From: Xanthobacter sp.
Lineage (GTDB): Bacteria > Pseudomonadota > Alphaproteobacteria > Rhizobiales > Xanthobacteraceae
Direction of reading: 5' to 3'
NCBI GenBank assembly: GCA_035911315.1
Contig: JAMHVS010000061.1
Coordinates: 103,769 to 167,768 of the forward strand
DNA: 64,000 nt
Shown here: piece by piece, positions 7,050 through 26,637 of the stretch
Layout of the letters: each line of letters begins with the position of its first letter
How positions within the stretch are numbered: position 1 is the first letter of the stretch
Position numbers and translations under genes: made by a program
Notes under the pieces: generated by a model
What the model saw: the letters and a program-made list of their open reading frames with translations, nothing else
Database searches by the model: none
What the model was told of the DNA's origin: nothing

Positions 7050-7063
7050 GGGCCGGCTCTCCT

Positions 7064-11174: not shown

Positions 11175-11269
11175 TGCCGCTCGCGCATCATCTCACTCTG
11201 CAGCCCGAAGAAATCTGAAGAGATGATGAGAACATGCCAGTCTGTATCACTGGCTGTATCCTCCACGTC

Positions 11270-11660
11270 ATTTTCAAAATTAGAATATTCAGATATAGAT
11301 ATTTATATTTATATATTCTATTCGAACAAATATCATCGAAAGATGAGAGAAAAGAAAAATTCATCTGATCTGTATTTATTTTTCGGTGCAATATGATTTG
11401 GAGTCGCTGCCACATAGTGCCGGGTTGAACAGGGATAGTACTGGTCCAATATGTCAGTTCTCAAATTGCACCGGCGTGAAAGCATAAGTTTGAGGCTTTC
11501 CATCATATTAATCAGCCGGACACTGTGATTTTGAATTATATTTTATATGTATTGATGATAATATGTAATTTGTAACAATTTATATTGAAGTAAATTATAT
11601 TTATATATTTGTATTATTATTGTAATTTCGGTCTATATATTGTGTTGATATGTTTCCTGC
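11270..11660. other. Sharply AT-rich non-coding tract with a repeated 15-mer
   Basis: By my count, nt 11521-11640 contain 19 G+C in 120 nt (about 16%), against roughly 60% in the flanks. The 15-mer ttatatttatatatt occurs at 11303-11317 and again at 11595-11609. Confidence 0.7.
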
Positions 11661-11762
11661 TGGCGATAAATGCATGGCGGGCTCGCCAATCCTGCATCGC
11701 AATTGAAGATGCTCCGTTCTGTGTGGGGGCGTCAAACTGACTTGATGAAGGATGAAAAGATA

Positions 11763-12116
11763 ATGGCACTACAAATCAAGCGGCTGGCTACATGCGCCGT
11801 TTTTTTTGCATCTCTGGTCCCCAGTGTTGCTCTTGCTCAGTCGGCGGCACGGAACCAGTGCGAGTTTTACGGCGAGAAACGATTTATCGGCATTGCCAAC
11901 GGTGAGGCCGTCGCACTTGAAGGCCAGAAAGAAGTTTACAACACGATGGCATTCAAGACGTATCAGGGAAAACCAGCCAAGATCACGTCAGTGAAGGTCA
12001 AGAATGGCTGCATGGCTGGCGTCACAAGTGGGATTGGTACTGGCGCGTCTGAGTATAATAAAGATATTGCCGTCAATAAGAGCACAACAACCGGCCTCTA
12101 CTGCATTTGTAAATAA
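11763..12116 (+). CDS. Small secreted protein with a beta/gamma-crystallin-type Greek-key signature (hypothetical)
   Basis: Sec signal peptide MALQIKRLATCAVFFASLVPSVALA. The mature part has YGEKRFIG (YxxxxFxG) followed by ITSVKV, as in beta/gamma-crystallin and inhibitor-I36-type domains. There are 4 Cys in the mature part. The listed ORF starts at 11670, but the Met at 11763 gives the signal peptide. Confidence 0.5.
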   Translation: MALQIKRLATCAVFFASLVPSVALAQSAARNQCEFYGEKRFIGIANGEAVALEGQKEVYNTMAFKTYQGKPAKITSVKVKNGCMAGVTSGIGTGASEYNKDIAVNKSTTTGLYCICK

Positions 12117-12505
12117 GGAAAATGCAGTTCGTTCTTTGAATTTCATTTATGAATCATCCCCAGTATTAATGCGTGGGGAGGATTTTTGTATTGTTGGGGC
12201 TGGCCTGTGTCCGGGGTCCAATATTATGAGGCGCGCTCATCATCAGGATCTTGGGGGCTGGGTTACGGCGTAGGGGCGCGCAACCAATGTCTTGAACCGC
12301 CGCAGGTTTGCCGGAGACCGTTTATTTTAGATTATGTGGCGATGTCTGATGTATCCAGCATGGCTCCTAGGCCTCGGCTCGCCTGTCATTCGCGATAGAG
12401 AATGGACGCGTATTGTGAGCAGCAGTGAGCCGCTGCGTGTTTCATGAACCTGATCCTGTCGAGATGTCCACGAAATCGGCAGCAGCCCAATTTGTCGATG
12501 CCGGA

Positions 12506-13066
12506 TCAGCGTAGGCGTTCTGTCCATGCAGCAAGGGCGACGAGGAGGTCGCGGATGAAGACCTGCGTCGTCTCGTCCGTCAGCTGGCCCTGGGCGTCGA
12601 ACTTGTTCTGAGCGCCGCCGATCATCACCTCCGGCTTGTTGAGGGGGAAGGCGTTGAGGAAGACGAGCATCTGACGCAGCTGATACTGGGCACGCGCCGT
12701 TCCCAGTGCGCCGGCACTGGCGCCCATGATGGCAACAGGCTTGCCATCAAAGGGCTGGCTTGGGGGGCGGGAGGCCCAGTCGATGGCATTCTTCAAGACG
12801 CCGGGGATCGAGTAGTTGAACTCGGGCGTGACAAACAAGATGGCGTCCGCAGCTGACAGCTGGTCCCGGAAGCGCTGCACTTCTGGCGGGTATCCGGCAA
12901 GGCGGGTGTCGTCATTATAATGTGGCAGGTCGCCGATTTTGGCTTCCTCAATCACCATGCCCTCAGGAGCAAGGCCGATGGCGGCCTTCAACGCTGCTGT
13001 ATTATAGGAATTCGCGCGCAGGCTGCCGGATATGGCAACCACACGGATTGGTCGGCTCGTCGTCAT
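12506..13066 (-). CDS. NADPH-dependent FMN reductase (ChrR/YieF-like flavin reductase)
   Basis: ISGSLRANSYN, TPEFNYSIPGVLKNAIDW and a flavodoxin-like fold. 186 aa. Confidence 0.85.
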   Translation of the reverse strand: MTTSRPIRVVAISGSLRANSYNTAALKAAIGLAPEGMVIEEAKIGDLPHYNDDTRLAGYPPEVQRFRDQLSAADAILFVTPEFNYSIPGVLKNAIDWASRPPSQPFDGKPVAIMGASAGALGTARAQYQLRQMLVFLNAFPLNKPEVMIGGAQNKFDAQGQLTDETTQVFIRDLLVALAAWTERLR

Positions 13067-13100
13067 GCTTGTCTCCCTGGATCAGGTCAATGCCGGCCTG

Positions 13101-13388
13101 TCAGCCTTGGCGGCGGATGAACCCGGTGATGGAAATACGGTCCCAGATGCCGGCGGCATGGAAGGGGTCTGCCGCGTTGAAGCGTTCCACCGCCGCCTTG
13201 TCCGGTGCCTCGACCAGAAACAGGCTTCCGATCATGGTTGTCCCGTCTTCCCCGACCAGTGGGCCGGACATGACGATGGAAATGCCAAAAGCCGAGGTGT
13301 CAGCCAGAAAGGCCTTGTGCGCTTCATAATGCGCAAGGCGCGTTTCAAGCGCACCGGCCCGGTCCTGCGCATGGATTGCGAAAAGCAT
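13101..13388 (-). CDS. YciI-family protein
   Basis: 95 aa. HLxxHxAF-type N-terminus (RLAHYEAHKAFL) and DPFxxAGxW (DPFHAAGIW), typical of YciI-like proteins. Confidence 0.8.
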   Translation of the reverse strand: MLFAIHAQDRAGALETRLAHYEAHKAFLADTSAFGISIVMSGPLVGEDGTTMIGSLFLVEAPDKAAVERFNAADPFHAAGIWDRISITGFIRRQG

Positions 13389-13489
13389 GGGTCATCCTTG
13401 AAAGGTGATGGTTCTGGGAAGGGGCGTGGCCTTTGGAAACGCAAGGTCACGCCACCGGTTTGCGGCAGGCGATGGGCTGTGCGGCCCGC

Positions 13490-14461
13490 CTATTTCTTGG
13501 TTTCCATCGCAGCGGCCTCTTCCCATGTCGGGCAGGTGCGCGCATCCAGCGCCACATCATAGGGCTGGTAATTGGAGGCGTTGATGACCGTGGGCTTGAG
13601 GACGACTTCCTTCACCACGCTCTCACCGCGCAGATCACGGATGGCGATCATGGTGCCGATGCAGCCCTGCAGGAAGCCGTTATAATCGCCCGAGGCCAGC
13701 AGCTTTCCGGTCTTGATGGCATCCACCGCTTCCTTTGTGCCATTGATACCGGCTACCTGTGCCTTGCGGTTTGCCCCATCCAGAGCCTCGATCGCGCCGA
13801 TGGCCATGGCATCATTGGCAGCCAGCACACCATCAATCTGCGGATGGGACTGCATCAAATTCTCCAGAACCTGAAGACCCTGCAATCGCTGGTAATTTGC
13901 GGGCTGGCTGGCGACCAGCTTCACATCCTTGAATTCCTTGATGGCATCGTTGAAGCCGCGGACACGATCGATCGAGGTGAGCGACCCCTTCACGCCTTCC
14001 AGAATGACCACATTGCCCTTGCCGCCAATGGCATTCAAAAGAAACCGCCCGGTTTCAAGACCTAGGCTGTAGTCATCGGCCCCGACAAAGGCGACATACT
14101 CACCACCTGCACCGCGATCCGTGACATTCACCACAGGGATGCCGGCCTCATTGATCATCTCGACGCCCGGTGTCATGGCCTTGTAGTCGACCGGAACGAA
14201 GACGATGGCGTTCGGTTTTTTGACGATGACGTCCTCGATCTGGCTCAGCTGCTCGGGGATTGAGTCCGGCTTGGTGGGAATGTAGTGCACCGCCGTCGCG
14301 CCCATGGATTTGGCAGCGACATCCGCGCCCACGCGCACGGTCTGGAAATAGGGGTTGGTCTGGTTCTTGGTGAAGACGGCGATGGTTTCATCGGCCGCCC
14401 ATGCACCGGTCGCCAGCAGGGCGGCGGGGAGCAGGGCGGCGAGATATGTCAGCTTCTTCAT
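13490..14461 (-). CDS. Sugar (CUT2/ribose-type) ABC transporter periplasmic substrate-binding protein
   Basis: The Met at 14461 is preceded by GGAGGA. Signal peptide MKKLTYLAALLPAALLATGAWA. Periplasmic-binding-protein type I fold (IAVFTKNQTNPYF...). Confidence 0.9.
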   Translation of the reverse strand: MKKLTYLAALLPAALLATGAWAADETIAVFTKNQTNPYFQTVRVGADVAAKSMGATAVHYIPTKPDSIPEQLSQIEDVIVKKPNAIVFVPVDYKAMTPGVEMINEAGIPVVNVTDRGAGGEYVAFVGADDYSLGLETGRFLLNAIGGKGNVVILEGVKGSLTSIDRVRGFNDAIKEFKDVKLVASQPANYQRLQGLQVLENLMQSHPQIDGVLAANDAMAIGAIEALDGANRKAQVAGINGTKEAVDAIKTGKLLASGDYNGFLQGCIGTMIAIRDLRGESVVKEVVLKPTVINASNYQPYDVALDARTCPTWEEAAAMETKK

Positions 14462-14501
14462 TGGGTTTTCCTCCGGTTTTCTGTTTTTTGATGTGGGCCG
14501 T

Positions 14502-15476
14502 TCAGGCCTTCTTGCGTCCGTACATGTCGAGCCACACGGCGAAGATGACGATGGCTCCGGTGACGAGGGGCTGCCAGCTGGCATTCACGGCCAGCAGGTT
14601 CATGCCGTTGAGAACGAGAGTCAGGATCAGCGCGCCGATGAAGGTTCCGAACACGCTGCCGATGCCACCAAACAGGGAGGCTCCGCCAATGAGCACGGCG
14701 GCGATGGCCGGCAGGGTCATGGTCTCGCCAATGTCACCCTCGGCCGAGTTGAGGCGGGCGAGGAAGACGATGGAGGCAACACCCGCCATCGCCCCTGAAA
14801 AGGCATAGACAAGGATGAGGCGTCGATCGACCGGGATGCCGGTGAGGCGGGCCGCGACCGGATTGGCGCCAATCGCGTAGATCTGCTGGCCCCACACCGT
14901 GCGCTGGGCAAAGAAGGTTCCGGCCAGCAGAAACACCACCATCAGATAGATGGGAATGGGAATGCCGAGGAAATAGCCGGACCCGATCTGCCGGAACTCT
15001 GGCGGGAAGCCGTGAATGCTTTCACCCGCCATGTAGTAATAGGTAATGCCGTGCAGAACCCAGAGCATGCCATAGGTGGCGATGAATGAGGGAATGCGCA
15101 GCTTGGCGACCATCAGCCCGTTGCACAGGCCGATGAGCAAGCCCGTGGCAAGGCCCGCCAGCGTGCCCAGAACCGGGGAGCCGGTGGCCTTGATGGCAGT
15201 TGCCGCCATGCAGGCGGAAAGCCCGATATTGGCCCCCACCGAGAGATCAAGCCCGCCGGTGAGAATGACCAGCGTGAGGCCGGATGCGAGAAAGAACAGA
15301 AGGCTGGCCTGCCGCAACACATTGAGAATGTTGTTGGAGGTGAGGAAGGCATCCGAGGCGATGCTGAGTGCAAGACACAGCAGGCCTGCCGCCAGCAGCC
15401 GGTAGACAAGCTGCTGCATGTCCTTGGACAGATGGATGCCGGAAGCACCCGTGGTGGGATTGTCCGTGATGCTCAT
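14502..15476 (-). CDS. Sugar ABC transporter permease (RbsC-like)
   Basis: Multi-TM BPD_transp_2-type sequence (GGLDLSVGA...). 4-nt overlap with the upstream permease gene. Confidence 0.9.
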   Translation of the reverse strand: MSITDNPTTGASGIHLSKDMQQLVYRLLAAGLLCLALSIASDAFLTSNNILNVLRQASLLFFLASGLTLVILTGGLDLSVGANIGLSACMAATAIKATGSPVLGTLAGLATGLLIGLCNGLMVAKLRIPSFIATYGMLWVLHGITYYYMAGESIHGFPPEFRQIGSGYFLGIPIPIYLMVVFLLAGTFFAQRTVWGQQIYAIGANPVAARLTGIPVDRRLILVYAFSGAMAGVASIVFLARLNSAEGDIGETMTLPAIAAVLIGGASLFGGIGSVFGTFIGALILTLVLNGMNLLAVNASWQPLVTGAIVIFAVWLDMYGRKKA

Positions 15477-16432
15477 GACTTGCTCCGCATGCCATCGAGG
15501 AGAAGGGCGAAGATGACGAGGACACCAATGCAGGTGACCTGAACCGAGGAGGGCACGGCCATCAGGTTCAGGCCGTTGCGCAGCACGCCCACGGTGAGCA
15601 CGCCCAACAGCGTGCCGAGCACCCAGCCATTGCCTTTTTCGAAGGAGGTGCCGCCCAGTGCCACGGCGGCGATGGCATCAAATTCCATGCCGATGGCAGC
15701 GGTTGGATGGCCGGCATTCATGCGCGCGGTCATCAGCAGTGCGGCGACCCCCGCCATGGCTCCGCCCAGCATGTAGACGCTGATGAGCAGGCGTTTCCAC
15801 TTCACGCCGGCCAGCGTCAGCGCATCCCGGTTTCCACCCAGCGCGCAGATATAGGTGCCAAAGCGCGTGTGATAGAGCAGCACATGGAACAGGGCGTAAA
15901 AGCCGATGCCGATGAGGATGGGGTTGGGAATGCCGATCACATCACCCGAATAGATCTGCCGGACATAACGCGGAATGCCCACCACGCTCTGCCCATCGGA
16001 AACGAGCAGTGCCAGCCCCTGCGCCGCACCCATGGTGCCGAGCGTTGCGACAAAGGGCGGAATGGAGAGCATCGACACCAGCCATCCATTCAGGAGGCCG
16101 AAGGCCAGCCCCACGCCGACAGCCGCCGCAAAGGCCAGAAGGAGCGAGCCGGTGGAGAGGATCGTCAGCGCCAGCACCAGTGATGCGAGGGTGAGCACCG
16201 CCCCCATGGAGAGGTCCAGCCCCTCTGTCATGATGATGAGGGTCATCGGCAGCGCCAGAAGCAGCAGGATGACCGACTGCACCAGAATATTGGAGAGGTT
16301 TCCTGTCGTCAGAAAGCCCGGGCTCAAGGCCGCGAACAGAATGAAGAGCAGTGCGAGCGCCATCACGACACCCGGAACCGAGGGCATCTTGACCCGTGCC
16401 GGTGCGGAGGGAGAAAGGGCCTGGTCACTCAT
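15473..16432 (-). CDS. Sugar ABC transporter permease (RbsC-like)
   Basis: Multi-TM with the GLDLSMGA motif. The likely start MSDQ at 16432 overlaps the ATPase stop by 8 nt. Confidence 0.9.
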   Translation of the reverse strand: MSDQALSPSAPARVKMPSVPGVVMALALLFILFAALSPGFLTTGNLSNILVQSVILLLLALPMTLIIMTEGLDLSMGAVLTLASLVLALTILSTGSLLLAFAAAVGVGLAFGLLNGWLVSMLSIPPFVATLGTMGAAQGLALLVSDGQSVVGIPRYVRQIYSGDVIGIPNPILIGIGFYALFHVLLYHTRFGTYICALGGNRDALTLAGVKWKRLLISVYMLGGAMAGVAALLMTARMNAGHPTAAIGMEFDAIAAVALGGTSFEKGNGWVLGTLLGVLTVGVLRNGLNLMAVPSSVQVTCIGVLVIFALLLDGMRSKS

Positions 16433-17975
16433 CGTGCATCCCCATTCGAACGATATTTTCTTCAGAAAGGTCGGAGCGGGACAGTTCGCCAACGATGCGC
16501 TTGGAGCGCATCACATAGGCCCGGTCGCAGACATGGACGATTTCCGCCTGCTCGGAGGAAATCATCAGCACCGCCGCGCCTTCCGAAACGAGCTGGTCGA
16601 TCAGGGCGAAGATTTCGGACTTCGCTCCCACATCGATGCCGCGCGTGGGCTCATCAAAGATGAAGAGGCGTGTGCCCGCCGCCAGCCACTTGCCGATGAC
16701 CACCTTCTGCTGGTTGCCACCGGAAAGGACGCCCACATTCTGGTTGGGCGAAGGGGTGGCGATGCGCAGTCGCTTGATGATCTCTTCCGCCGTGCGCCGC
16801 GCTGTGCGCGGTGAGAACAGGTTGTTGGGGAACAGCTTTGGCAGTCCGGCAACGGCCAGATTGTCGCCCACCGTGCGGATCAGCGCGAGGCCTTCGGTCT
16901 TGCGGCTTTCGGGAATGAGACCGACCCCGGCGCGCGAGGCCGCATCCGGCCCGCCATTCTGCTGTTTGCCGAACAGGCGGATCTCGCCGGCGGTCACTTC
17001 ATCTGCCCCGAAGATGGCGCGCGCCACCTCGGTTCGGCCCGAGCCCACCAGACCGCACAGGCCCACAATCTCGCCCGCGCGAATGGTGAGATTGATATCC
17101 TCGATGCCATTCTTGGCGCTCAGGCCCTTCACCTCCAGCACGACCTCGCCGGGGTCCGTGGTGAAGTGGCGGGGATAGGTCATGTCGATATTGCGACCCA
17201 CCATCATGCGCACGAGTTCATCCGGCGTGGAGGTGTCGGGCATGGCGCGCCCCACCATCTTGCCGTCGCGCAGCACGGTGATGCGGTCTCCCATCGAGAA
17301 GACCTCGGCCATGCGGTGCGAGATATAGATGATGGCCACGCCCTTGGCCTGGAGCTGGCGCATCACCTCGAACAGGCGCTCTGTTTCCCGGTCGGAGAGC
17401 GAGGCGGTCGGCTCATCCATCACCAGAATGCGGGCATTCTGCGAGAGAGCCTTGCCGATCTCGACCATCTGCTGCTGGGCGACGCCAAGCGTGTGGACCT
17501 TGGTGTAGGGGCTGACATCAAGGCCAATGAGGTCCAGCACCGCCTGTGCCTCACGATACAGCCGGCCACGGTCCAGCAGTCCGGGGATTTTCGAGCTGAA
17601 TTCACGGCCAAGGAAGATGTTCTGCGCCACATCCAGATAGGGAACGAGCGAGAATTCCTGAAAGATGACGGCGATGCCGAAACGGCGCGCATCGGCGGGC
17701 GAGTTGATCTCGACCTTCTCGCCATTGTGGAAGAACTCGCCCTCATCTGCCTGATAGGCCCCGCAGAGCACCTTCATGAGCGAGGATTTGCCGGCGCCAT
17801 TCTCGCCCAGCAGCATGTGCACCTCGCCCGGCCAGATCGGGAAGGACACATCATCCAGCGCCTTCACGCCGGGGAAGGATTTTGAGATGCCGCGCAGTTC
17901 CAGCAGGGGAAAGCCGGGCGGGTCGGCGGGGATGGGCTGGACAGTGCGGGGCATTGTATCGGGAACCGCTCTCAT
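16425..17975 (-). CDS. Sugar ABC transporter ATP-binding protein (duplicated ABC domains)
   Basis: Walker A GENGAGKSS, signature LSGGNQQK and two nucleotide-binding domains, as in RbsA/MglA. 4-nt overlap with the upstream FAD-oxidase gene. Confidence 0.95.
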   Translation of the reverse strand: MRAVPDTMPRTVQPIPADPPGFPLLELRGISKSFPGVKALDDVSFPIWPGEVHMLLGENGAGKSSLMKVLCGAYQADEGEFFHNGEKVEINSPADARRFGIAVIFQEFSLVPYLDVAQNIFLGREFSSKIPGLLDRGRLYREAQAVLDLIGLDVSPYTKVHTLGVAQQQMVEIGKALSQNARILVMDEPTASLSDRETERLFEVMRQLQAKGVAIIYISHRMAEVFSMGDRITVLRDGKMVGRAMPDTSTPDELVRMMVGRNIDMTYPRHFTTDPGEVVLEVKGLSAKNGIEDINLTIRAGEIVGLCGLVGSGRTEVARAIFGADEVTAGEIRLFGKQQNGGPDAASRAGVGLIPESRKTEGLALIRTVGDNLAVAGLPKLFPNNLFSPRTARRTAEEIIKRLRIATPSPNQNVGVLSGGNQQKVVIGKWLAAGTRLFIFDEPTRGIDVGAKSEIFALIDQLVSEGAAVLMISSEQAEIVHVCDRAYVMRSKRIVGELSRSDLSEENIVRMGMHDE

Positions 17976-19390
17976 GGCGTCTCTCCCTCGCTGGGCATTC
18001 GGAAGATCTTGCCGGGGTTCATGATTCCAAGAGGATCGAACGCTGACTTGATGAGCCGCATGGCATCCACGGCCTCACCCAGCTCCAGTTCCAGCAGCTT
18101 CATCTTGCCAAAGCCGATGCCATGTTCGCCCGTGCAGGTTCCGTCCAGCGCGATGGCCCGGCGGGCCAGCCGGTCGCAAAACGCCTTGGCGCGCTCCAGC
18201 TCCTGCGGGTTGTCGGGGTCCAGCAGCACCAGCAGATGGAAGTTGCCATCTCCCACATGCCCCACCACCGGGGCGATGACACCGGTTTCCGCAATATCCC
18301 GCGCGGTATCGAGCAGGCATTCGGTGAGGCGCGAAATGGGCACGCACACATCGGTAATCATGGCGCGCGCGCCGGGCCGCAGAGCGAGGCCAGCATAGAG
18401 CGTGTTATGCCGTGCAACCCAGAGGCGGGTTCGGTCTTCCGGCGTCGTGGACCACTGGAAACCCTGCCCGCCAAATTCGGTAGCGATGGCCTCCGCCATC
18501 TCGGACTGCTCTGCCACGCCGGCGGGGGAGCCATGGAATTCGAAGAACAGGTGGGGCTGTTCGGGCAGGCCCATCTTGGCGTGGATGTTCATGCCACGCA
18601 TCATCACGTCATCGAGCAGCTCGACGCGTGCCACCGGAACACCGGACTGAATAACGGCGATGGCTGTATCGACTGCGGCCTTCAGGTCCGGAAAAGCGCA
18701 AACAGCAGCGGAGATCGCCTCGGGTTGCGGATGCAGCTTCAGCGTGATCTCGGTGATGACGCCCAGCGTGCCTTCCGCACCCACGAACAGGCGGGTCAGG
18801 TCATATCCGGCCGCGGTCTTGCGGGCGCGTTGTGCCGTGCGGATGACGCGTCCGTCTGCCAGAACCACCTCAAGGGAAAGCACATTGTCTTTCATCGTGC
18901 CATAGCGCACGGCGGTGGTGCCAGAGGCGCGGGTGGAGGTCATGCCGCCAATGGAGGCATCCGCACCCGGATCGATCGGAAAGAACAGGCCGGTGTCCCG
19001 AAGATGCGCATTGAGCCGCTCGCGGGTGATGCCGGGCTGGATGCGGATGTCCATGTCCTCGGCATGCACCGCCACCACCTTGTCCATGCGGCTCATGTCG
19101 AGACACACGCCTCCGCGCACCGCGGCGGCATTGCCTTCCAGTGAAGTGCCGGCCCCGAAGGGAATGAGCGGCAGGCGCAAGTCGTGGCACACGCGCACGA
19201 TGGCCTGTACTTCCTCCGTGGTCTCGGGAAACACGACGATGTCTGGCGGCAGGGCGGCGTGATACGCCTCACTGCGCCCGTGATCGGCAAGGATGCCCTT
19301 CGCGGTGGTGGCGCGTGGTCCGACAATGGCGGCCAGCTGCTCCAGGGCACTTTCCAGCGATGGCCCGACAATGGGCACGTGAGCGGACAT
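17972..19390 (-). CDS. FAD-linked oxidase (GlcD / D-lactate or D-2-hydroxyacid dehydrogenase-like)
   Basis: FAD_binding_4 pattern (PFGAGTSLEGN) and a C-terminal FAD-oxidase domain (GEHGIGFGK). The Met at 19390 is preceded by GGAGGAAATCAA. Confidence 0.9.
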   Translation of the reverse strand: MSAHVPIVGPSLESALEQLAAIVGPRATTAKGILADHGRSEAYHAALPPDIVVFPETTEEVQAIVRVCHDLRLPLIPFGAGTSLEGNAAAVRGGVCLDMSRMDKVVAVHAEDMDIRIQPGITRERLNAHLRDTGLFFPIDPGADASIGGMTSTRASGTTAVRYGTMKDNVLSLEVVLADGRVIRTAQRARKTAAGYDLTRLFVGAEGTLGVITEITLKLHPQPEAISAAVCAFPDLKAAVDTAIAVIQSGVPVARVELLDDVMMRGMNIHAKMGLPEQPHLFFEFHGSPAGVAEQSEMAEAIATEFGGQGFQWSTTPEDRTRLWVARHNTLYAGLALRPGARAMITDVCVPISRLTECLLDTARDIAETGVIAPVVGHVGDGNFHLLVLLDPDNPQELERAKAFCDRLARRAIALDGTCTGEHGIGFGKMKLLELELGEAVDAMRLIKSAFDPLGIMNPGKIFRMPSEGETP

Positions 19391-19506
19391 TTGATTTCCT
19401 CCATGTCGGCCCGTTTGTCGGGCTCTCGATTTGGCGGTCAGCAAGTAAGGGAAGTGGCAGGAATGAAGGGCGTGATGATATGGCGTGCTCACGCGTTTTC
19501 ATTCAC

Positions 19507-20394
19507 TCATGCCGCGTTCGAGACAGCCTCCTTTTGAGGGTTGAGGCTGAAATCATAGGTGAGGTGGCTCCATGTGCTCTCCATCACACGCCCGTCCGGT
19601 GCGGTGCCGGGCGGATGGTCGATGAAGGTGCGGATGAGGGAGTCCTTCACCCCAAACACCGCATCGCTGTCGAGATAGGGGTCACCGGCGACAAACACAT
19701 GGGTGACAAGCTTCTCATGGCCCGGCGCCTCGATCATGAAATGCACATGGGCGGGGCGCCAGGGGTGGCGACCCTGCGCCTCCAGCATCTTGCCCACCGG
19801 GCCATCATGCGGGATGGGATAGGCCGCCGGCTTGATGGACCAGAAGCTGAACTGGCCCTTCTCGTCAGTGCGCAGGCGGGCGCGGGCGATGAGGCCTGCG
19901 TCCTCGTCCGTGCTCTGGACATCGTAATAGCCATCCTCGTCCGAGTGCCAGACATCGACAATGGCGTTGGCAATGGGCGCGCCCTCATGGGTGGTCACCG
20001 AGCCGGTGACGAACATGGGCTCACCGGCAAGATCGCCTGAAATCAGGCTGCCACAGTTCATTTCCGGCGGGCCTTCCACATAGAAGGGGCCGAGCACCGT
20101 GCTTTCCGTCACCGCATGCTGGTGGTCGTGATTGATGGCATCCACCAGCATGGACACGCCCAGCGTATCGGAGAGCAGGATGAATTCCTGCCGCGTCCCG
20201 GTGCACATGTGGCCGGTGTCGGTGAGGAAGGAGATACCCTGTTCCCACTCCGCCTGTGTCGGGCGCACCTCGCGCACGAAATTGTGCAGGTGGCGCACCA
20301 GAGCCGAGCTGATCTCCAGAATTCTCGGGTCGGGAGCATTTGCAATACGCTCAAGAACCGCGTCTGTGATGCTGAACTGGTCGAAATTTCTCAT
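19507..20394 (-). CDS. Intradiol ring-cleavage dioxygenase, hydroxyquinol (1,2,4-benzenetriol) 1,2-dioxygenase-like
   Basis: N-terminal helical domain and the core motifs DVWHSDEDGYYD, YPIPHDGPVGKML and GRHPWRPAHVHF, typical of catechol/hydroxyquinol 1,2-dioxygenases. Genomic pairing with maleylacetate reductase favours hydroxyquinol. Confidence 0.85.
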   Translation of the reverse strand: MRNFDQFSITDAVLERIANAPDPRILEISSALVRHLHNFVREVRPTQAEWEQGISFLTDTGHMCTGTRQEFILLSDTLGVSMLVDAINHDHQHAVTESTVLGPFYVEGPPEMNCGSLISGDLAGEPMFVTGSVTTHEGAPIANAIVDVWHSDEDGYYDVQSTDEDAGLIARARLRTDEKGQFSFWSIKPAAYPIPHDGPVGKMLEAQGRHPWRPAHVHFMIEAPGHEKLVTHVFVAGDPYLDSDAVFGVKDSLIRTFIDHPPGTAPDGRVMESTWSHLTYDFSLNPQKEAVSNAA

Positions 20395-21308
20395 GCCAGC
20401 CTCCCGTCATTCTGGTTGAGTTCCGGCTCTTCAAGGCCGGCGAGCCATTCGGCGAGGCGCACGGTGGAGATGAAGTCCGCATCGCCTTCCCCGCGTCCGA
20501 TGAGTGCGCCATAGATTTCGCGGGTCTGCGCCGCGAGCGGGGTGGACATCTGCGCCCCGTGGCCGGCCTCGATGATGAGGTCGAGATCCTTCGCCATCTG
20601 GCTGCAGGAAAAGGTGGAGCTGAAGTCACGCGTCTCAAGGCTTTTCGCCTTGTAGTGGACCATGGGAGAGCCGACAGCGCTGTTGGTCAGCACGTCCAGA
20701 ATATCCTGCCAGGCCAGATTGCCCTTGCGGGCCAGTACGATGCTTTCTCCCATCATGGCGGCGGAGACCGCGATCATCAGATTGACCGCGAGCTTGGCAA
20801 ATCGCGCTTCCTCCCCTACCCCGAGATATTTCTGGGCGCGGGTGAAATCTTTCAGCACCGGCAGGACAGTCTCAAAGGCTGCGTTCGGCCCCGAGACGAA
20901 GCAGGTGAGATTGCCGGTGTGGGCAATGGCGGCATTGCCGGAAACCGGAGCGCGCAGGCAGGCGATGCCGCGTGCGCTGGCCGCTTGCGCAACTGCCGCA
21001 GAGATGCCGGGGCTGACCGTGGAGGTCTCGACCAGAATGGAACCCTTGGCCATCTGCTCCAGAAGCGGGCCGTCCAGCATCACGGCGCGCAGGGCCTTGT
21101 CATCCGGCAGCGAGGTGAAGACGATGGATTGCCCGGCTGCCTCATCAAGGCCGGAAGCCGGAGTGACACCTGCCGCGACCGCTTCGGCCACGCGCTGCGG
21201 ATCACGGTCATAGCCTGCGATCCTGTATCCCTGAGCGACAAGCCGGGTGGAAATGGGCAGGCCCATCTTTCCAAGGCCGACCCAGCCCAGTGTCGGGGTT
21301 TCAACCAT
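20391..21308 (-). CDS. NAD(P)-dependent beta-hydroxyacid dehydrogenase (3-hydroxyisobutyrate dehydrogenase family)
   Basis: GWVGLGKMG Rossmann motif and a 6PGDH-type NAD-binding plus C-terminal helical domain. ATGA overlap with the downstream dioxygenase. Confidence 0.85.
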   Translation of the reverse strand: MVETPTLGWVGLGKMGLPISTRLVAQGYRIAGYDRDPQRVAEAVAAGVTPASGLDEAAGQSIVFTSLPDDKALRAVMLDGPLLEQMAKGSILVETSTVSPGISAAVAQAASARGIACLRAPVSGNAAIAHTGNLTCFVSGPNAAFETVLPVLKDFTRAQKYLGVGEEARFAKLAVNLMIAVSAAMMGESIVLARKGNLAWQDILDVLTNSAVGSPMVHYKAKSLETRDFSSTFSCSQMAKDLDLIIEAGHGAQMSTPLAAQTREIYGALIGRGEGDADFISTVRLAEWLAGLEEPELNQNDGRLA

Positions 21309-22698
21309 GTGCGCCTCCTCCGGCGATCGTTGGGCCAAGCCCCAGTTCGTTCACGATACGCGTGCCCGAACGGACCAGCCGTGCACATTTCTCATCCAGG
21401 TTTTCAGCCAGAAGCTTGTGATTGCGCTTCATGAAGCGCCCGGCAATCATCACGGCTTCCACATCTGCGCGGTTGGCCTGCATGATGACGGTAGCAACCG
21501 GGTCATGCATCGGTTGCAGGTGCAGGGCGCGCGCATCAATCAGTGTCAGGTCCGCCTGCTTGCCGGGGGACAGGGAGCCGATGCGGTGGTCCTGTCCCAG
21601 CATGCGTGCGCCTTCGATGGTGATCCATTCCAGAGCCTGTCGGACCTTGACGGTGGATGTGGGCGGAATGGAGCCATGTTCACGCCTGCTCCCGGCATTG
21701 TCGAGCGCGCGCTGTGTGCCGAGCGCAATGCGCGCCACGCCCATCATGTCTCCGGCCAGAACGGATTCAAGGTCCACCCCCACGGAGGGCGCGACGCCCA
21801 GACGCAGCAGCCGGCCCGTGATGGGAAAGCCATGCCCCTGCGTCATCTCGTTTTCCGGGGTGACGGAAAATGACACGCCGAGATCCACGAGGCGGGACAG
21901 CATCGTGTCTGTCAGGTCATTGCCGTGCACGACATTGATGCCGGGGCCAACCAGCCCCTCATCAAGCAGTGCCTCCCAGCCGCCCGGAGCTTTCGCGGGG
22001 CCGCCACCCTGATGCATGGAGGCCACCAGCCCGTATTCCCGCGCCAGCCGGAAGTCCGACCGGGTGACCTCAAGGGTGGAATAGTGCGGCCCGAGAATGG
22101 CAAGGCCGAGGGTCAGCAGGCCATCCGTGGAGGAGAATGCCCCCCGGCGCAGGCGTTCAATCTCGGCCCGCGGATGCGGCACCTCCGAGAAGTGCGGCTG
22201 TCCGGGCTGCGGATCCGGCTTGGGGGAACCGTGGAAGAAGGCCGCGCGAATGCCGCTTTCCTTCAGGGCGGAAACGGCCGCATCGGTATGCTCGGGCGTG
22301 GGATTGTTATGGCACCAGTCAACCAGCGTGGTCGTGCCGGCATCAATCTGGCCCAGAGCCCCCATCAGGGTCGAGATGTTGATGTCTTCCGGTGTGAAGC
22401 GAGTGGCGAGGCCTGCATGCACCCACTTGAAATATTCGAGCAGGGTCCAGTTGGCCGCCACGCCGCGCAGATTGGTCTGCCATGTGTGCATGTGGGCGTT
22501 GATGAAGCCCGGAACGCAGATCCGCCCGCGCGCATCCACCAGTTGCGCATCATCCACCGCAAGTGCTGGCGCGATGGCGATGATGCGTTCGCCTTCAATC
22601 AGGATGTCACCCGTTGCAAGGTCGCCCAGCGCAGGATCCATGGACAGGATGGTTGCACCGCGGATGAGGGTTCGGGATGCGTGCTGATCGCGTGCCAT
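21301..22698 (-). CDS. Amidohydrolase-superfamily aminohydrolase/deaminase (ATZ/TRZ / guanine-deaminase-like)
   Basis: Metal-binding HxH in PGFINAHMHTWQT, 465 aa, and a later HG...D pattern. Resembles chlorohydrolase/deaminase members of the Amidohydro_1 family. Confidence 0.85.
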   Translation of the reverse strand: MARDQHASRTLIRGATILSMDPALGDLATGDILIEGERIIAIAPALAVDDAQLVDARGRICVPGFINAHMHTWQTNLRGVAANWTLLEYFKWVHAGLATRFTPEDINISTLMGALGQIDAGTTTLVDWCHNNPTPEHTDAAVSALKESGIRAAFFHGSPKPDPQPGQPHFSEVPHPRAEIERLRRGAFSSTDGLLTLGLAILGPHYSTLEVTRSDFRLAREYGLVASMHQGGGPAKAPGGWEALLDEGLVGPGINVVHGNDLTDTMLSRLVDLGVSFSVTPENEMTQGHGFPITGRLLRLGVAPSVGVDLESVLAGDMMGVARIALGTQRALDNAGSRREHGSIPPTSTVKVRQALEWITIEGARMLGQDHRIGSLSPGKQADLTLIDARALHLQPMHDPVATVIMQANRADVEAVMIAGRFMKRNHKLLAENLDEKCARLVRSGTRIVNELGLGPTIAGGGAHG

Positions 22699-22701
22699 CG
22701 C

Positions 22702-23784
22702 TCACGCGGCCTCCTCTGCGGGCAGGAAGGGGCGCTCGCCGGCATAGGCGCGGTTCAGCAGGGCGAATATGGCGTCGCGCGTGACAGGGCGCGGGTTCCA
22801 GTACGGGTTCTCAATCGCCAGATCCGCCGCATGTGCGATGCCATCTTCCGGCATGCCGAGGGTTGAGAGCGCATGGGGAACGCGCAAGGCGCGCACGAGA
22901 TCATAAAGCCCCTGCGCCGCATCGGGAGCGCCAAGGGCACGCCGGACCGCGGCCATGGCTTCTGGTGCGGCAGGGGCATTATAGGCCACGGTGTGGGGCA
23001 GCATCACGGTGTGGGTTTCCGCGTGCGGCAGATCGAAGGTGCCGCCAAGCGTGTGGCAGAGCTTGTGATGCAGCGCCATGCCCACGGTGCCAAGACAGAT
23101 GCCGCACAGCCATGCGCCATAAAGGGCCTTGGTGCGAGCCTCCATATTGGCCGGCTCGTGCACCAGAATGGGCAAAGCGGAGGAAAGCGCCCGGATACCG
23201 TCTTCCGCCATCAGCGAAATGACCGGATTGCGATCACGCGCATAGAGCGCCTCCACCGCATGGGCAATGGCATTGATACCCGAAGTGGCGGAGAGAGTGG
23301 CCGGCAGGCTCAGCGTGAGGTTCACATCGTAAATAACGACCTCTGGCAGCACATCCAGCGAACGGATCGTCGTTTTCCGGCCATCGCGCGTTTCGCCCAG
23401 AATGGGGGTCATTTCCGAGCCGGCATAGGTGGTGGGAATGACGAGCTGCGCAATACCGGTGCGCAGCGCCAGCGCCTTGCCAAGGCCAGTGGTGGAGCCG
23501 CCACCCATGGCCACTACGCAATCGGCATCCAGCGCCCTGAGCACCTCAAGTGCCCTCTCGGTGACATCGACCGGGGTATGCATGGTCGCATCGGAAAACA
23601 GGCCGGCGAAGCGCTCCCCGAGCATCACGCCAAGCTTTTCACCCTCGCCCTTCTGCTGGGGCGTTGTGAGAACAAGCGCGCGCCGTGCGCCCAGCTTTTC
23701 GACTTCGGATTCCACCTCCCGCAGGGTGCCGGTGCCGAACCGCACGCGCATGGGGAGCGCTTCATAGATGAATGTATCAATCAT
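22702..23784 (-). CDS. Maleylacetate reductase (iron-containing alcohol dehydrogenase family)
   Basis: FIYEALPMRVRFGTGTL N-terminus, GGGSTTGLGKA and a His cluster (HHKLCHTLGG...HAETH), characteristic of maleylacetate reductases. Confidence 0.85.
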   Translation of the reverse strand: MIDTFIYEALPMRVRFGTGTLREVESEVEKLGARRALVLTTPQQKGEGEKLGVMLGERFAGLFSDATMHTPVDVTERALEVLRALDADCVVAMGGGSTTGLGKALALRTGIAQLVIPTTYAGSEMTPILGETRDGRKTTIRSLDVLPEVVIYDVNLTLSLPATLSATSGINAIAHAVEALYARDRNPVISLMAEDGIRALSSALPILVHEPANMEARTKALYGAWLCGICLGTVGMALHHKLCHTLGGTFDLPHAETHTVMLPHTVAYNAPAAPEAMAAVRRALGAPDAAQGLYDLVRALRVPHALSTLGMPEDGIAHAADLAIENPYWNPRPVTRDAIFALLNRAYAGERPFLPAEEAA

Positions 23785-23829
23785 GGGCTTTCCCTTCCGG
23801 GTTGTGTTTGGCCCTGAACGTCTGTGCGC

Positions 23830-24201
23830 CTATTTGCCCGCAACCAGCTGTTCGAACGGATGCAGCCCGGCAGGGGCGGGGAAGCCGATATCCTCCGCCA
23901 CATAATCCACCTGGAAGCGGGCAATGCGCAGGTCCGCCAGCTCATCGCGCACCCGCAGATGCTCGGGATGGGTGGCATAGGCCTCAAGGTCCGCGCTTGT
24001 GGCGAATTCGGTCACAAGAACGACATCGCAAGCATAGCTGACGTTCGAAACATCAAGGCCGACCTCAAGATGGGTGAGGCCGGGGATAAGCCCGCGCAGG
24101 CCTTCAAATGCCTCTTTCACCTTGGCGCGAACGGTCGCACGCTCTTCAGGCGTGTTGCCGCTCACACGCCACATCACAATGTGCCGTATGGGAGCCGTCA
24201 T
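23830..24201 (-). CDS. Dabb (stress-responsive A/B-barrel) domain protein
   Basis: IRHIVMWRV...LEAYATHPEHLRV is the typical Dabb signature. First gene of the catabolic string. Confidence 0.8.
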   Translation of the reverse strand: MTAPIRHIVMWRVSGNTPEERATVRAKVKEAFEGLRGLIPGLTHLEVGLDVSNVSYACDVVLVTEFATSADLEAYATHPEHLRVRDELADLRIARFQVDYVAEDIGFPAPAGLHPFEQLVAGK

Positions 24202-24220
24202 GGCGTTTCCTTGACCCTGC

Positions 24221-24289
24221 GATCATTATTGATCTTCTCTTTCTTAGACTTTTGACTTGCAGCTACAGGAAATAAACCCGCATATGCGG
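24221..24289. promoter_or_regulatory. Two palindromes in the divergent LysR/catabolic-operon control region
   Basis: GATCATTATTGATC (24221-24234) and the perfect 12-bp palindrome CCGCATATGCGG (24278-24289). Both lie between the Dabb start (24201) and the LysR start (24316). Confidence 0.3.
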
Positions 24290-24315
24290 AACACTCTTTT
24301 GCGGTAGGTGGAAGA

Positions 24316-25230
24316 ATGGATCGGCTGACCCAGATCGAGGTGTTTGTGAAGACGGCCGAGTTGCGCAGCCTGTCTCGGGCGGCAGAGGCGCTGGGCATGT
24401 CCAATGCGGCGGCCAGCCGGCATCTCTCCGCGCTGGAGGAGCGCCTTTCGGCCCGCCTGATCGAACGCAATACCCGCCGCCTGTGGCTGACAGAGGCCGG
24501 GCAGGAGTTCTTTCGCCATTGCGGTTCGGTTCTCAACGAACTGGCCGAGGCGGAAGAGGCGGTGACGGAACATACGGCCTCGCCACAAGGCACGCTGCGG
24601 GTCACAAGCTCCCTGTCCTTCGCCACCATCTATCTTGCGCCCATGTTGCCGGATTTGCGGCGGCGCTATCCAAAGCTCAATGTGCATATTGCGGTTTCAA
24701 ACCGCTATCTCGATTTTATCGAGGCTGGTATAGATGTGGCCATCCGCACCAGACTGCATGAGCCGGATACAAATATTATTGTGAGACGACTTGGACGCAT
24801 GCGGCGTGTTCTGGCGGCGTCGCCTTCCTATATTGCCGAGCGCGGATGGCCGCTGGAGCCTGCCGACCTCACGCGCCATGATATGCTGGTTTATAATCTG
24901 GCTGCGGACCCGTTCTCGCTCCGCCTCTCAAAAGGTGATGTGGAGCGCACGGTACATATCTCTGCGGCACTGGACTGTAATGACGGACAGGTTATTCGTC
25001 AGGCAGCCCTTGAAGGTCTCGGCATACTGATCCAGCCGCTTTACATTGTGCAGGATGATATTGATGCGGGTCGTCTGGTGCCAGTCATGATTGATTGGCA
25101 ACTGCCCATGTTAACAATGAATATTGCCTATCAGAACCGGGAGCAGCTGCCTGCAAAGATCCGCGTTTTTACAGATCATCTCGTTGCCCATGTGCGCAAG
25201 TCATCGAGCAGCGAGATATGGTCTGTGTAG
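24316..25230 (+). CDS. LysR-family transcriptional regulator
   Basis: MDRLTQIEVFVKTAELRSLSRAAEALGMSNAAASRHLSALE wHTH followed by a LysR effector domain. Divergent from the catabolic string. Confidence 0.9.
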   Translation: MDRLTQIEVFVKTAELRSLSRAAEALGMSNAAASRHLSALEERLSARLIERNTRRLWLTEAGQEFFRHCGSVLNELAEAEEAVTEHTASPQGTLRVTSSLSFATIYLAPMLPDLRRRYPKLNVHIAVSNRYLDFIEAGIDVAIRTRLHEPDTNIIVRRLGRMRRVLAASPSYIAERGWPLEPADLTRHDMLVYNLAADPFSLRLSKGDVERTVHISAALDCNDGQVIRQAALEGLGILIQPLYIVQDDIDAGRLVPVMIDWQLPMLTMNIAYQNREQLPAKIRVFTDHLVAHVRKSSSSEIWSV

Positions 25231-26527: not shown

Positions 26528-26637
26528 ATTCTGTTTTCCAGTGTGTTCAAAGTGTTGAACGGAGCCGCTGCCCGTTCCTGTTTTGATGGACGAAGACATG
26601 GTGGCTTGATGTTTTCATTGAAGATTGGCATCGCGGA

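Follow-up and report, generated by a model that had tools for sequence, protein, structure and literature searches.

How does a bacterium obtain hydroxyquinol if the operon that cleaves it holds no oxygenase to make it? This question is raised by a gene cluster of Xanthobacter sp. (assembly GCA_035911315.1, contig JAMHVS010000061.1, forward-strand positions 103,769 to 167,768). We analysed this stretch of 64,000 nucleotides as a whole and call it the window; coordinates of the operon count from its first letter. Twelve consecutive open reading frames (ORFs) occupy the minus strand from 12506 to 24201, and a divergent ORF occupies the plus strand from 24316 to 25230. A preliminary description of the same DNA, made from the letters alone, had given this gene count with these strands and coordinates, and the ORF listing bears them out. 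Hydroxyquinol is among the few central intermediates of aerobic aromatic catabolism, and the textbook routes to it use O2-dependent hydroxylases.

The locus is a real operon, conserved in many soil bacteria, and published systems do not explain it. Its lower half is ordinary; its upper half is built around PRK08204, an uncharacterised enzyme family. This widespread operon, found in dozens of Bradyrhizobium, Xanthobacter and Bosea species and in reduced form in Burkholderiales and Halomonas, seems to arrive at hydroxyquinol by way of a metal hydrolase and dehydrogenases, and not by O2-dependent hydroxylases. Tentatively, we propose a LysR-controlled operon for uptake and catabolism, in which a six-carbon ring compound would be brought to hydroxyquinol without an oxygenase, by hydrolytic and eliminative trimming of an already substituted quinonoid ring.

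The lower pathway and the absent hydroxylase

The hydroxyquinol 1,2-dioxygenase (19507–20394, minus strand) has the Dioxygenase_N and Dioxygenase_C domains and an RPAHVHF motif. Its score is 313 bits with the Nocardioides hydroxyquinol 1,2-dioxygenase (1tmx), 280 bits with PnpC and 277 bits with a 6-chlorohydroxyquinol dioxygenase, compared to at most 136 bits with catechol 1,2-dioxygenases, and it reaches no catechol or chlorocatechol equivalog cutoff in NCBIfam. A grouping with plain catechol dioxygenases, an outcome that the preliminary description had considered, is not what we find: hydroxyquinol enzymes score far higher, the catechol reading can be ruled out (at most 136 bits versus 277–313), and by homology the enzyme is securely of the hydroxyquinol type. 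Equally secure by homology is the maleylacetate reductase (22702–23784, minus strand). This protein of the iron-containing alcohol dehydrogenase (Fe-ADH) family matches the solved maleylacetate reductases 3hl0 and 3w5s with 434–436 bits and other Fe-ADH enzymes with at most 108 bits, and its Bosea orthologue is annotated as maleylacetate reductase.

To place the locus among its relatives, we searched a single genome of each species with a profile of the amidohydrolase. At least 561 relatives were obtained, of which the best 80 were examined with 10-kb flanks (loci numbered with an L below). Neighbours were called by tblastn and by clustering of all ORFs. Because the amidohydrolase gene served to find the loci, all statistics on them are conditional on its presence. 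In some relatives pca genes lie directly upstream of the reductase gene, namely pcaIJ in L025 and L057 and pcaIJF with PcaR in L084 and L087. In Skermanella (L090, plasmid pSR-2, 12811–14782) a BKACE gene lies downstream of the maleylacetate reductase gene instead of pca genes, and the encoded enzyme may stand in for PcaIJF by converting 3-oxoadipate with acetyl-CoA. This gene is annotated as "3-keto-5-aminohexanoate cleavage protein". Since relatives attach pcaIJF with PcaR, or a BKACE gene, we take 3-oxoadipate to be the product of the lower pathway; pcaIJ, pcaF and PcaR were not found in the window by tblastn. A lower pathway from hydroxyquinol through maleylacetate to 3-oxoadipate is shown by homology, and the scores of the dioxygenase and the reductase agree with what had been claimed for these two genes before.

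In the window, tblastn found none of the families tested: no FAD aromatic hydroxylase, no Rieske oxygenase and no GMC oxidoreductase. Pfam and NCBIfam searches revealed no oxygenase domain among the 12 gene products, and a domain search for the TftCD chlorophenol monooxygenase was negative for the 12 genes and their flanks. The earlier statement that a ring hydroxylase is absent is correct for the operon and for the window, but not for some relatives (in L057 a hydroxylase gene lies beside the dioxygenase gene). With no oxygenase in the operon or window, either the ring arrives with its heteroatoms already in place, or a non-aromatic carbocycle is aromatised.

The last gene of the operon encodes a ChrR/YieF-type NAD(P)H:quinone (FMN) reductase (12506–13066, minus strand; PF03358, FMN_red). 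It had been described as a stand-alone flavin reductase without an oxygenase partner. This label has to be replaced: the protein scores 248 bits against PA1204 (1rtt) and 148–180 bits against the chromate/quinone reductases ChrR and YieF, whereas the SsuE and MsuE models give 30–31 bits against cutoffs of 164–212. At these scores of about 30 bits an orphan half of a two-component monooxygenase can be ruled out. A quinone reductase of this type would be the expected helper for hydroxyquinol, which auto-oxidises. The gene is limited to the Xanthobacter/Bosea group (8 loci); the corresponding clusters of Burkholderiales, Skermanella and Paraburkholderia carry RutE-like nitroreductases instead.

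Two small proteins of the operon may act on similar rings. For the YciI-family protein (13101–13388, minus strand; PF03795, YCII) the best genuine PDB match is TftG (4lbh; E 9e-9, 39 bits over residues 1–83), ahead of HI0828, a likeness at the family level only. TftG is 5-chlorohydroxyquinol dehydrochlorinase, which eliminates HX from a substituted hydroxyquinol to give hydroxybenzoquinone. The designed propellers "Cake" and "Bagel" outrank TftG in the PDB search, an artefact of a repeated 17-residue motif (SGPLVGEDGTTMIGS). YciI stands at the operon end in Bradyrhizobium and beside the dioxygenase in L084, L087 and P. domus. The first gene of the operon encodes a Dabb (stress-responsive alpha/beta-barrel) protein (23830–24201, minus strand; PF07876, E 9.5e-23), whose sole PDB relative, 3fmb, is a structure without assigned function. 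Dabb is found in 37 loci, and an unannotated copy is present in Paraburkholderia D15; its role may be tautomerase- or cyclase-like.

Two known systems resemble this part of the operon. The tft lower pathway of Burkholderia (cepacia/phenoliruptrix) AC1100 (TftG, hydroxybenzoquinone reductase, TftH and TftE) shares four functions with the operon, in both cases within a single locus: a YciI-family protein, a quinone reductase, a hydroxyquinol 1,2-dioxygenase and a maleylacetate reductase. Unlike tft, the operon has no TftCD-type two-component monooxygenase and no sign of a chlorinated substrate, and it adds the amidohydrolase, a beta-hydroxyacid dehydrogenase, an LDHD-type enzyme, Dabb and an ATP-binding cassette (ABC) importer. 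The gamma-resorcylate/resorcinol clusters (gra of Rhizobium sp. MTP-10005, tsd of Rhodococcus, rol of Corynebacterium glutamicum) likewise join a hydroxyquinol dioxygenase and a maleylacetate reductase to a transporter, a regulator and a member of the amidohydrolase superfamily. The structure 3w5s (434 bits to the reductase here) is presumably the maleylacetate reductase of the gra cluster of Rhizobium sp. MTP-10005. Unlike the operon, these clusters make hydroxyquinol by a flavin-dependent resorcinol hydroxylase.

The quinone-handling genes bring up an explanation that needs no upper pathway at all. Hydroxyquinol or its quinone could be taken up directly, and the amidohydrolase, the dehydrogenase, YciI, Dabb and the reductases would then control damage by salvaging para-diol side-products such as quinones and their amine or water adducts. 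No other explanation accounts for the missing hydroxylase so economically. It would also fit with the accessory module accompanying other para-diol ring-cleavage enzymes, whatever the ring substituent, and with the quinone reductases, the glutathione S-transferase gene (which adjoins the L085 cluster) and the thioredoxin-like gene found nearby. Homologues on enterobacterial plasmids (about 35% identical) sit among quinone- or electrophile-type reductases, and in C. glutamicum hydroxyquinol controls a sugar-type transporter jointly with a dioxygenase and a maleylacetate reductase. However, free hydroxyquinol is short-lived in oxic soil, an 11-gene translationally coupled operon suggests a linear pathway and not repair, and the amidohydrolase-dehydrogenase pair is also found without a ring-cleavage gene within 10 kb. 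We therefore regard direct uptake as quite unlikely.

The PRK08204 amidohydrolase and its partners

At the centre of the upper half is a metal-dependent amidohydrolase (21301–22698, minus strand; PF01979, Amidohydro_1; NCBIfam NF006056). It scores 608 bits against the PRK08204 model (cutoff 391), whose family name is only "hypothetical protein". The best named model, 5'-deoxyadenosine deaminase, gives 145 bits against a cutoff of 522, and the protein reaches the cutoff of no named deaminase or chlorohydrolase model in NCBIfam. The closest folds to its AlphaFold model (pLDDT 84.5) are AtzA, isocytosine deaminase, 8-oxoguanine deaminase and TrzN (TM about 0.8, 20–26% identity), and methylthioadenosine deaminases are also among the nearest relatives in sequence and fold searches. 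A structure search for a closer non-deaminase relative returned only the AtzA/TrzN/deaminase group and the benzoxazole-forming NatAM, at 19–26% identity.

The metal ligands H69/H71, H229, H258 and D309 align with those of 3hpa and are invariant in the family. The glutamate of the HxxE motif after strand 5, which protonates the ring and the departing nitrogen and drives deamination in ATZ/TRZ enzymes, is replaced by glycine (H229-Q-G-G aligns with "HLAE" of 3hpa), and it is missing in all family members examined, including paralogues that are 36–48% identical. A different glutamate, E282 of a "PE" motif after strand 7, is invariant and kept in members down to 36% identity. E282 in place of the HxxE glutamate suggests a related but non-canonical hydrolytic chemistry. 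Because the defining catalytic glutamate fails, we do not class the enzyme as an ATZ/TRZ deaminase. The earlier label "ATZ/TRZ deaminase-type" is right for the fold and the metal ligands, but not for the HxxE glutamate, and no named family reaches its cutoff. A lack of catalytic residues, which the preliminary description had raised against its own reading, is seen in half: the metal ligands are there and the HxxE glutamate is not.

Two analogies for this enzyme were rejected. The gamma-resorcylate decarboxylase of gra/tsd/rol-type clusters belongs to PF04909, a different amidohydrolase family from the PF01979/PRK08204 protein here. In the case of paracetamol and 4-aminophenol, the paper calls the enzyme that deaminates 4-aminophenol still unknown and points to RidA proteins, not to PRK08204.

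The gene next to the amidohydrolase encodes an NAD-type beta-hydroxyacid dehydrogenase (20391–21308, minus strand; PF03446 and PF14833, NAD_binding_2/11). Its motifs are GxGxxG, D44, "APVSGN" and the catalytic pair K182/N186, and the acidic residue D44 suggests a preference for NAD. Tartronate semialdehyde reductase and 2-(hydroxymethyl)glutarate dehydrogenase (3cky, second-best) are its nearest structures. The presence of the catalytic Lys/Asn of true beta-hydroxyacid dehydrogenases rules out an imine reductase. Further along lies an LDHD-type FAD-dependent D-2-hydroxyacid dehydrogenase (17972–19390, minus strand; FAD_binding_4 and FAD-oxidase_C), which scores 559 bits (E 1e-166) against the mitochondrial D-lactate dehydrogenase 8jdc and 228 bits against glycolate oxidase. 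The earlier "GlcD-like FAD oxidase" was right about the FAD_binding_4/FAD-oxidase_C family, but glycolate oxidase (GlcD) gives way to an LDHD-type D-2-hydroxyacid dehydrogenase, which fits better. Overall, the Pfam and NCBIfam domain searches agree with every family label given before; only the closer identities implied by "flavin reductase", "GlcD-like" and "ATZ/TRZ" had to be revised. The FAD-enzyme gene is missing from the otherwise complete clusters of L089, Halomonas and Burkholderiales.

The operon is widely conserved. In about 45 loci or species Dabb, reductase, amidohydrolase, dehydrogenase, dioxygenase, FAD enzyme, ABC genes and YciI follow each other in the same order, with 57–98% amino-acid identity and unrelated flanks. 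These syntenic loci are found in Xanthobacter, Aquabacter, Bosea, Azorhizobium, Tardiphaga and many Bradyrhizobium species. The best-matching one is in a Xanthobacter metagenome-assembled genome (MAG; 89–98% identity), and two Bosea plasmids carry the whole string in order between unrelated flanks. Comparing gene neighbourhoods had been suggested in the preliminary description, and the outcome is that the genes co-occur across relatives with unrelated flanks, beyond chance. The string is co-conserved, but not as a fixed unit of twelve: the FMN reductase is confined to the Xanthobacter/Bosea group, and some relatives do without the FAD enzyme, Dabb or LysR or have a substitute. Invariant is a core of amidohydrolase, beta-hydroxyacid dehydrogenase, dioxygenase and reductase together with an importer, the type of which varies. 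A gene of the beta-hydroxyacid dehydrogenase family adjoins the amidohydrolase gene in 78 of the 80 loci, and about 55 of the 80, from Alpha-, Beta- and Gammaproteobacteria, combine the amidohydrolase with the hydroxyquinol dioxygenase and/or the reductase.

Outside the syntenic loci the four-gene core has other company. Burkholderiales MAGs add pcaIJ, TctC receptors, a RutE-like nitroreductase and DUF4440/SnoaL, and one of these clusters further adds a short-chain dehydrogenase/reductase (SDR), a CMD protein and a FAD aromatic hydroxylase. Halomonas adds a second, unrelated CUT2 system; Skermanella adds the Halomonas-type CUT2 system, SDR, ThuA, a RutE-like reductase and BKACE. In Skermanella L090 the ThuA-domain gene lies directly 5' of the amidohydrolase gene. 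The P. domus cluster, with no maleylacetate reductase gene within 10 kb, holds the other three core genes (amidohydrolase, dehydrogenase and dioxygenase) together with YciI, a GMC oxidoreductase, a Liv-type ABC system and a further PRK08204 paralogue. In Paraburkholderia D15 amidohydrolase, dioxygenase and reductase occur with LysR, Dabb, a major facilitator superfamily (MFS) transporter with a porin, a RutE-like reductase and a GMC oxidoreductase; no beta-hydroxyacid dehydrogenase was found in this cluster. Tandem-like clusters of P. domus and Variovorax hold two PRK08204 paralogues, a pairing that is reminiscent of the successive steps of AtzA, AtzB and AtzC.

More distant amidohydrolases (41–48% identity) keep similar company. 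In Cupriavidus necator N-1 (L094, pBB2, 7992–13254) and Streptomyces (L097, 8001–15487) the gene occurs with SnoaL/NTF2, YciI and beta-hydroxyacid dehydrogenase genes, and these modules adjoin VOC-type or bicupin dioxygenases and FAH hydrolases. In Mycobacterium (L098, 5538–11896) it lies near homogentisate dioxygenase and SnoaL genes, without YciI and dehydrogenase. Hence, the PRK08204 amidohydrolase recurs with several kinds of para-diol ring cleavage. In the actinobacterial locus L099 it is found with yet another CUT2 system. On enterobacterial plasmids, homologues of about 35% identity each have a LysR gene of their own (L095, Klebsiella variicola pKP91, 3558–10803; L096, Pantoea pEuc1, 5556–9341). 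Their neighbours encode flavin reductase, NAD(P)H oxidoreductase, aldo/keto reductase, "aromatic alcohol reductase" and SMP-30 lactonase, a neighbourhood that looks like quinone or electrophile handling.

One could also argue that the two halves of the operon do not belong to one pathway. The amidohydrolase, the dehydrogenase, the FAD enzyme and the importer would then serve a non-aromatic, nitrogen-containing hydroxy acid or sugar acid, and the hydroxyquinol genes would merely be co-located or co-regulated. The gene junctions bear on this question. The 4-nt overlaps at 20391–20394, 17972–17975 and 15473–15476 and the 3-nt gap at 22699–22701, all noted before, are confirmed. So are the 8-nt overlaps at 21301–21308 and 16425–16432, given that the dehydrogenase starts at ATG 21308 and the first permease at ATG 16432; both starts have a Shine-Dalgarno sequence (GGAGG at the dehydrogenase). 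The FAD enzyme most likely starts at ATG 19390, which follows a GGAGG (the LDHD alignment starts at residue 48), and therefore a gap of 116 nt lies 3' of the dioxygenase gene. Inside this gap there is a promoter-like match at 19502–19475. Hence, a single transcript across 19390–19507 is not assured, and the operon may consist of two transcription units, one from Dabb to the dioxygenase and one from the FAD enzyme to the FMN reductase.

A separate transcript for the FAD enzyme and the ABC genes would suit such a mosaic. So would the nearest structures of the dehydrogenase, which are semialdehyde reductases including 2-(hydroxymethyl)glutarate dehydrogenase, the RutE-like "malonic semialdehyde reductases" that recur in clusters, and the amidohydrolase-dehydrogenase pairs without ring-cleavage genes in Reyranella-type and Acidobacteriota loci. 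A comparable pair of amidohydrolase and beta-hydroxyacid dehydrogenase is known from nicotinate fermentation in Eubacterium barkeri (enamidase and 2-(hydroxymethyl)glutarate dehydrogenase), where the hydrolase releases a semialdehyde that the dehydrogenase reduces. Unlike in E. barkeri, the amidohydrolase here has no specific similarity to enamidase, and its context is benzene-ring cleavage, not pyridine-ring fermentation. A mosaic seems very doubtful for the following reasons. First, the amidohydrolase and dehydrogenase genes sit between the reductase and dioxygenase genes, with junctions of 3 nt, 8 nt and 4 nt. Second, three proteobacterial classes retain the four-gene core although their importers and regulators differ. 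Third, in L084 and L087 the whole string is joined at its upstream end to PcaR and pcaIJF.

Possible routes to hydroxyquinol

If the two halves form one pathway, trimming of a substituted ring could proceed as follows. The ribose-type ABC system would import a ring that already bears heteroatoms, for example an amino-, methoxy- or hydroxy-substituted quinol or quinone, and O2-dependent hydroxylation would therefore be unnecessary. The metal-bound hydroxide of the PRK08204 enzyme would displace a ring substituent, the likeliest leaving group being -NH2/-NHR or -OCH3, on an electron-poor quinonoid or keto tautomer, as AtzA and TrzN do on triazines. YciI and Dabb may contribute tautomerisation and elimination, and the NAD(P)H enzymes (the beta-hydroxyacid-dehydrogenase-type protein and the FMN reductase) may take the product to hydroxyquinol. 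To judge from its homologues, the ChrR-type reductase could also turn auto-oxidised 2-hydroxy-1,4-benzoquinone back into the quinol. Dioxygenase and reductase would, again by homology, lead from there to maleylacetate and 3-oxoadipate.

This scheme is supported by the amidohydrolase fold, the family-wide association with para-diol ring cleavage, the quinone-handling partners and the tandem paralogues in some clusters. AtzA, AtzB, AtzC and TrzN (COG0402) are the nearest folds and sequences to the amidohydrolase and have the same HxH/H/H/D metal site; the concept in common is that water, not O2, strips substituents from an electron-poor ring. TrzN displaces -Cl, -OCH3 and -SCH3. A comparable sequence of steps is known from Phanerochaete, where lignin-derived methoxybenzoquinone is converted to hydroxybenzoquinone and then handled by a quinone reductase, a trihydroxybenzene dioxygenase and a maleylacetate reductase. 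Unlike AtzA and TrzN, the amidohydrolase (20–26% identical to them) is without the HxxE glutamate and partners benzene-ring cleavage, not cyanuric-acid enzymes.

Several points weigh against trimming and keep our preference tentative. We know of no direct precedent for the displacement of a benzoquinone substituent by an amidohydrolase fold, and searches of 5.8 billion proteins gave no experimentally based name for any PRK08204 member, only generic or automated ones. Amidohydrolases linked to hydroxyquinol genes form no clade of their own in a neighbour-joining tree. In Acidobacteriota (L014, L019–L024, L029, about 10000–19500) amidohydrolases of 64–67% identity are translationally coupled to a distant beta-hydroxyacid-dehydrogenase-like gene, with asparagine-synthase-like, carbamoyltransferase, glycosyltransferase and epimerase genes downstream; this context looks like glycan biosynthesis and is poorly compatible with aromatic catabolism. 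Reyranella-type loci (L051, L064, L073, L076–L082, about 0–19000) hold a Rieske (LigXa-like) oxygenase, a glutamine-synthetase-like gene, an amidase and a PLD-like gene beside the amidohydrolase, a dehydrogenase (31% identity), TctC, a MetE-like gene, Amidohydro_3 and a GMC oxidoreductase. No ring-cleavage gene was found in their 10-kb flanks, and the cluster looks like one for the catabolism of an organic nitrogen compound. Furthermore, a canonical beta-hydroxyacid dehydrogenase with catalytic Lys/Asn and an LDHD-type enzyme have no clear job in the scheme. Neither a high-affinity sugar-type ABC importer nor the LacI-type regulator of L085, the ThuA and SDR genes of Skermanella and the GMC partners would be expected for a small quinonoid aromatic.

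The importer itself had been assigned to the CUT2 (ribose-type) family, and all its parts are present on the minus strand: an ATPase with two ABC domains (16425–17975; PF00005 in two stretches), two permeases (15473–16432 and 14502–15476; PF02653, BPD_transp_2, in both) and a periplasmic substrate-binding protein with a signal peptide, a ribose-binding-protein fold and an altered pocket (13490–14461; PF13407, Peripla_BP_4). The ATPase is 70–98% identical in full loci. Halomonas and Skermanella have a second type of CUT2 system, with an ATPase 44–45% and binding proteins only 30–33% identical to those of the operon. Against the RbsB equivalog the binding protein scores 170 bits, below the cutoff of 337 bits, and its nearest structure is 2ioy. 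Compared to the contact residues of E. coli RbsB, R141, N190 and D89/R90 are kept, and D215 is changed to N, Q235 to Y, F15 to Y and F164 to Y. We do not class the importer as a ribose transporter because the RbsB cutoff is missed and four ribose contacts are replaced.

A ribose-type importer next to a nucleobase-type deaminase would suggest a nucleoside or a heteroaromatic amine as the substrate, and the heteroaromatic variant had been put forward in the preliminary description. The binding protein does match ribose-binding proteins best, the nearest characterised relatives of the amidohydrolase are nucleobase and nucleoside deaminases, and the LacI regulator of L085 is nearest to RbsR, CytR and PurR. 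Yet genes for a nucleosidase, phosphorylase or glycosidase are missing from the cluster, the amidohydrolase is without the deaminase glutamate, and the ribose-binding residues D215 and Q235 are replaced. Also, a nitrogen heterocycle cannot give the benzene ring that the hydroxyquinol dioxygenase and maleylacetate reductase require. We consider this origin of hydroxyquinol extremely improbable.

The main rival to trimming starts from a ring that is not aromatic at all. Aromatisation of a cyclitol-like substrate had been one of two hypotheses in the preliminary description, the other being catabolism of an aminated aromatic or heteroaromatic compound. The ABC system would import a sugar-like carbocyclic polyol (inositol, deoxy-inositol or an aminocyclitol), which the dehydrogenases would oxidise to a keto-cyclitol. 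The amidohydrolase would be a metal-dependent enolising dehydratase or a deaminating hydrolase, and Dabb and YciI would aid the stepwise removal of water in three formal dehydrations. The resulting hydroxybenzoquinone would be reduced by the quinone reductase before the ring is cleaved. Such a route is redox-neutral (C6H12O6 = C6H6O3 + 3 H2O). It would account for the LacI-type regulator of L085 and for the ThuA, SDR and GMC genes of variant clusters, and also for the accessory oxidoreductases, all of them carbinol dehydrogenases, to which a fully aromatic ring would offer no group for oxidation. The combination of the amidohydrolase with a ribose-type ABC system is seen in three separate lineages (the operon here, Halomonas/Skermanella and the actinobacterial L099). 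The binding pocket retains the sugar-hydroxyl ligands R141, N190 and D89/R90, and the loss of the deaminase glutamate fits a reaction without a nitrogen leaving group. Scytalone dehydratase, olivetolic acid cyclase and TftG are examples of aromatising dehydratases and cyclases that use the SnoaL/NTF2, Dabb and YciI folds.

Among published systems, the one most like this combination of hydroxyquinol genes and a sugar-type importer is an operon of C. glutamicum. There the gene of the sugar/inositol-type transporter IolT2 is co-transcribed with genes for a maleylacetate reductase and an intradiol dioxygenase (iolT2-rhcM2D2), the same two enzyme types as here, and is induced via the repressor IhtR, which responds to 1,2,4-trihydroxybenzene; the physiological substrate of the system is unknown (PMC7764795). 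Unlike the ABC system of the operon, the iolT2 transporter belongs to the MFS, and iolT2-rhcM2D2 lacks the amidohydrolase, the dehydrogenase, YciI and Dabb.

Despite this, we regard aromatisation of a cyclitol as unlikely. Pfam searches of the 12 products and the neighbours examined revealed no Gfo/Idh/MocA (IolG-type) dehydrogenase, no IolE-type dehydratase and no IolD, and beta-hydroxyacid dehydrogenases normally require an anionic substrate. In Burkholderiales versions of the cluster uptake relies on TctC, Liv-type or MFS systems, which usually serve organic acids or aromatics, and one such version has an aromatic-ring FAD hydroxylase. The bicupin and homogentisate dioxygenase contexts, if they concern gentisate- or homogentisate-type rings, are hard to derive from cyclitols. 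No enzymatic route from a cyclitol to hydroxyquinol was found in the openly searchable literature.

The preliminary description had asked whether a characterised cluster of the same composition already exists; we found none in the openly searchable full-text literature, subscription-only literature being outside the search. An apparent match (PMC11008163) was discarded, as it matched only "8-hydroxyquinoline".

Finding the substrate would give a function to PRK08204, a large unnamed family with thousands of members and a distinct catalytic motif, and would correct the routine annotation of its proteins as cytosine or methylthioadenosine deaminases. It would also explain why a module of amidohydrolase, YciI, SnoaL and beta-hydroxyacid dehydrogenase recurs near several para-diol ring-cleavage pathways. 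Depending on the substrate, it would reveal either a new hydrolytic entry for substituted quinones derived from lignin, humus or plants, or a metabolic link between cyclitols and aromatics in rhizosphere bacteria. If cyclitols were aromatised, carbohydrate carbon would enter the 3-oxoadipate pathway via an aromatic intermediate, and the PRK08204 enzyme would be a new kind of aromatising dehydratase or hydrolase.

Control region and flanks

The divergent gene (24316–25230, plus strand) encodes a LysR-family regulator. Its best NCBIfam matches are LysR-family equivalogs, with YafC at 205 bits, below the cutoff. The LysR gene is kept at the same position in 39 loci. It is replaced by a gene for a PcaR-type IclR regulator in L084 and L087, and by one for a LacI-type regulator, nearest to RbsR, CytR and PurR, in L085. 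The intergenic region between LysR and Dabb (24202–24315) contains a perfect palindrome (CCGCATATGCGG) at 24277–24290. A motif that encloses this palindrome, GGAAAAGAG-N17-CTTTATTTCCG-N7-GCAAGNCAAAA, is kept in all of the roughly 40 full loci from Xanthobacter to Bradyrhizobium. The motif is probably the LysR binding site together with the promoter.

For the substrate-binding protein the start is almost certainly ATG 14461, which is preceded by GGAGG and followed by the signal peptide MKKLTYLAALLPAALLATGAWA, and not 14584. The longest ORF, from 14584, would add a Pro/Ser-rich N-terminal extension of 41 residues that overlaps permease 2. Terminator-like hairpins are not in excess in the region (9 found versus 9.6 expected in shuffled sequence).

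Beyond LysR, at 25301–29491, lie genes for a class-III aminotransferase, a BenE-family transporter and a MocR-type GntR regulator. On the other flank, ribF (FAD synthetase) is found at 10218–11174, and the G+C content falls to 0.53 at 10–12 kb, just past the operon end.

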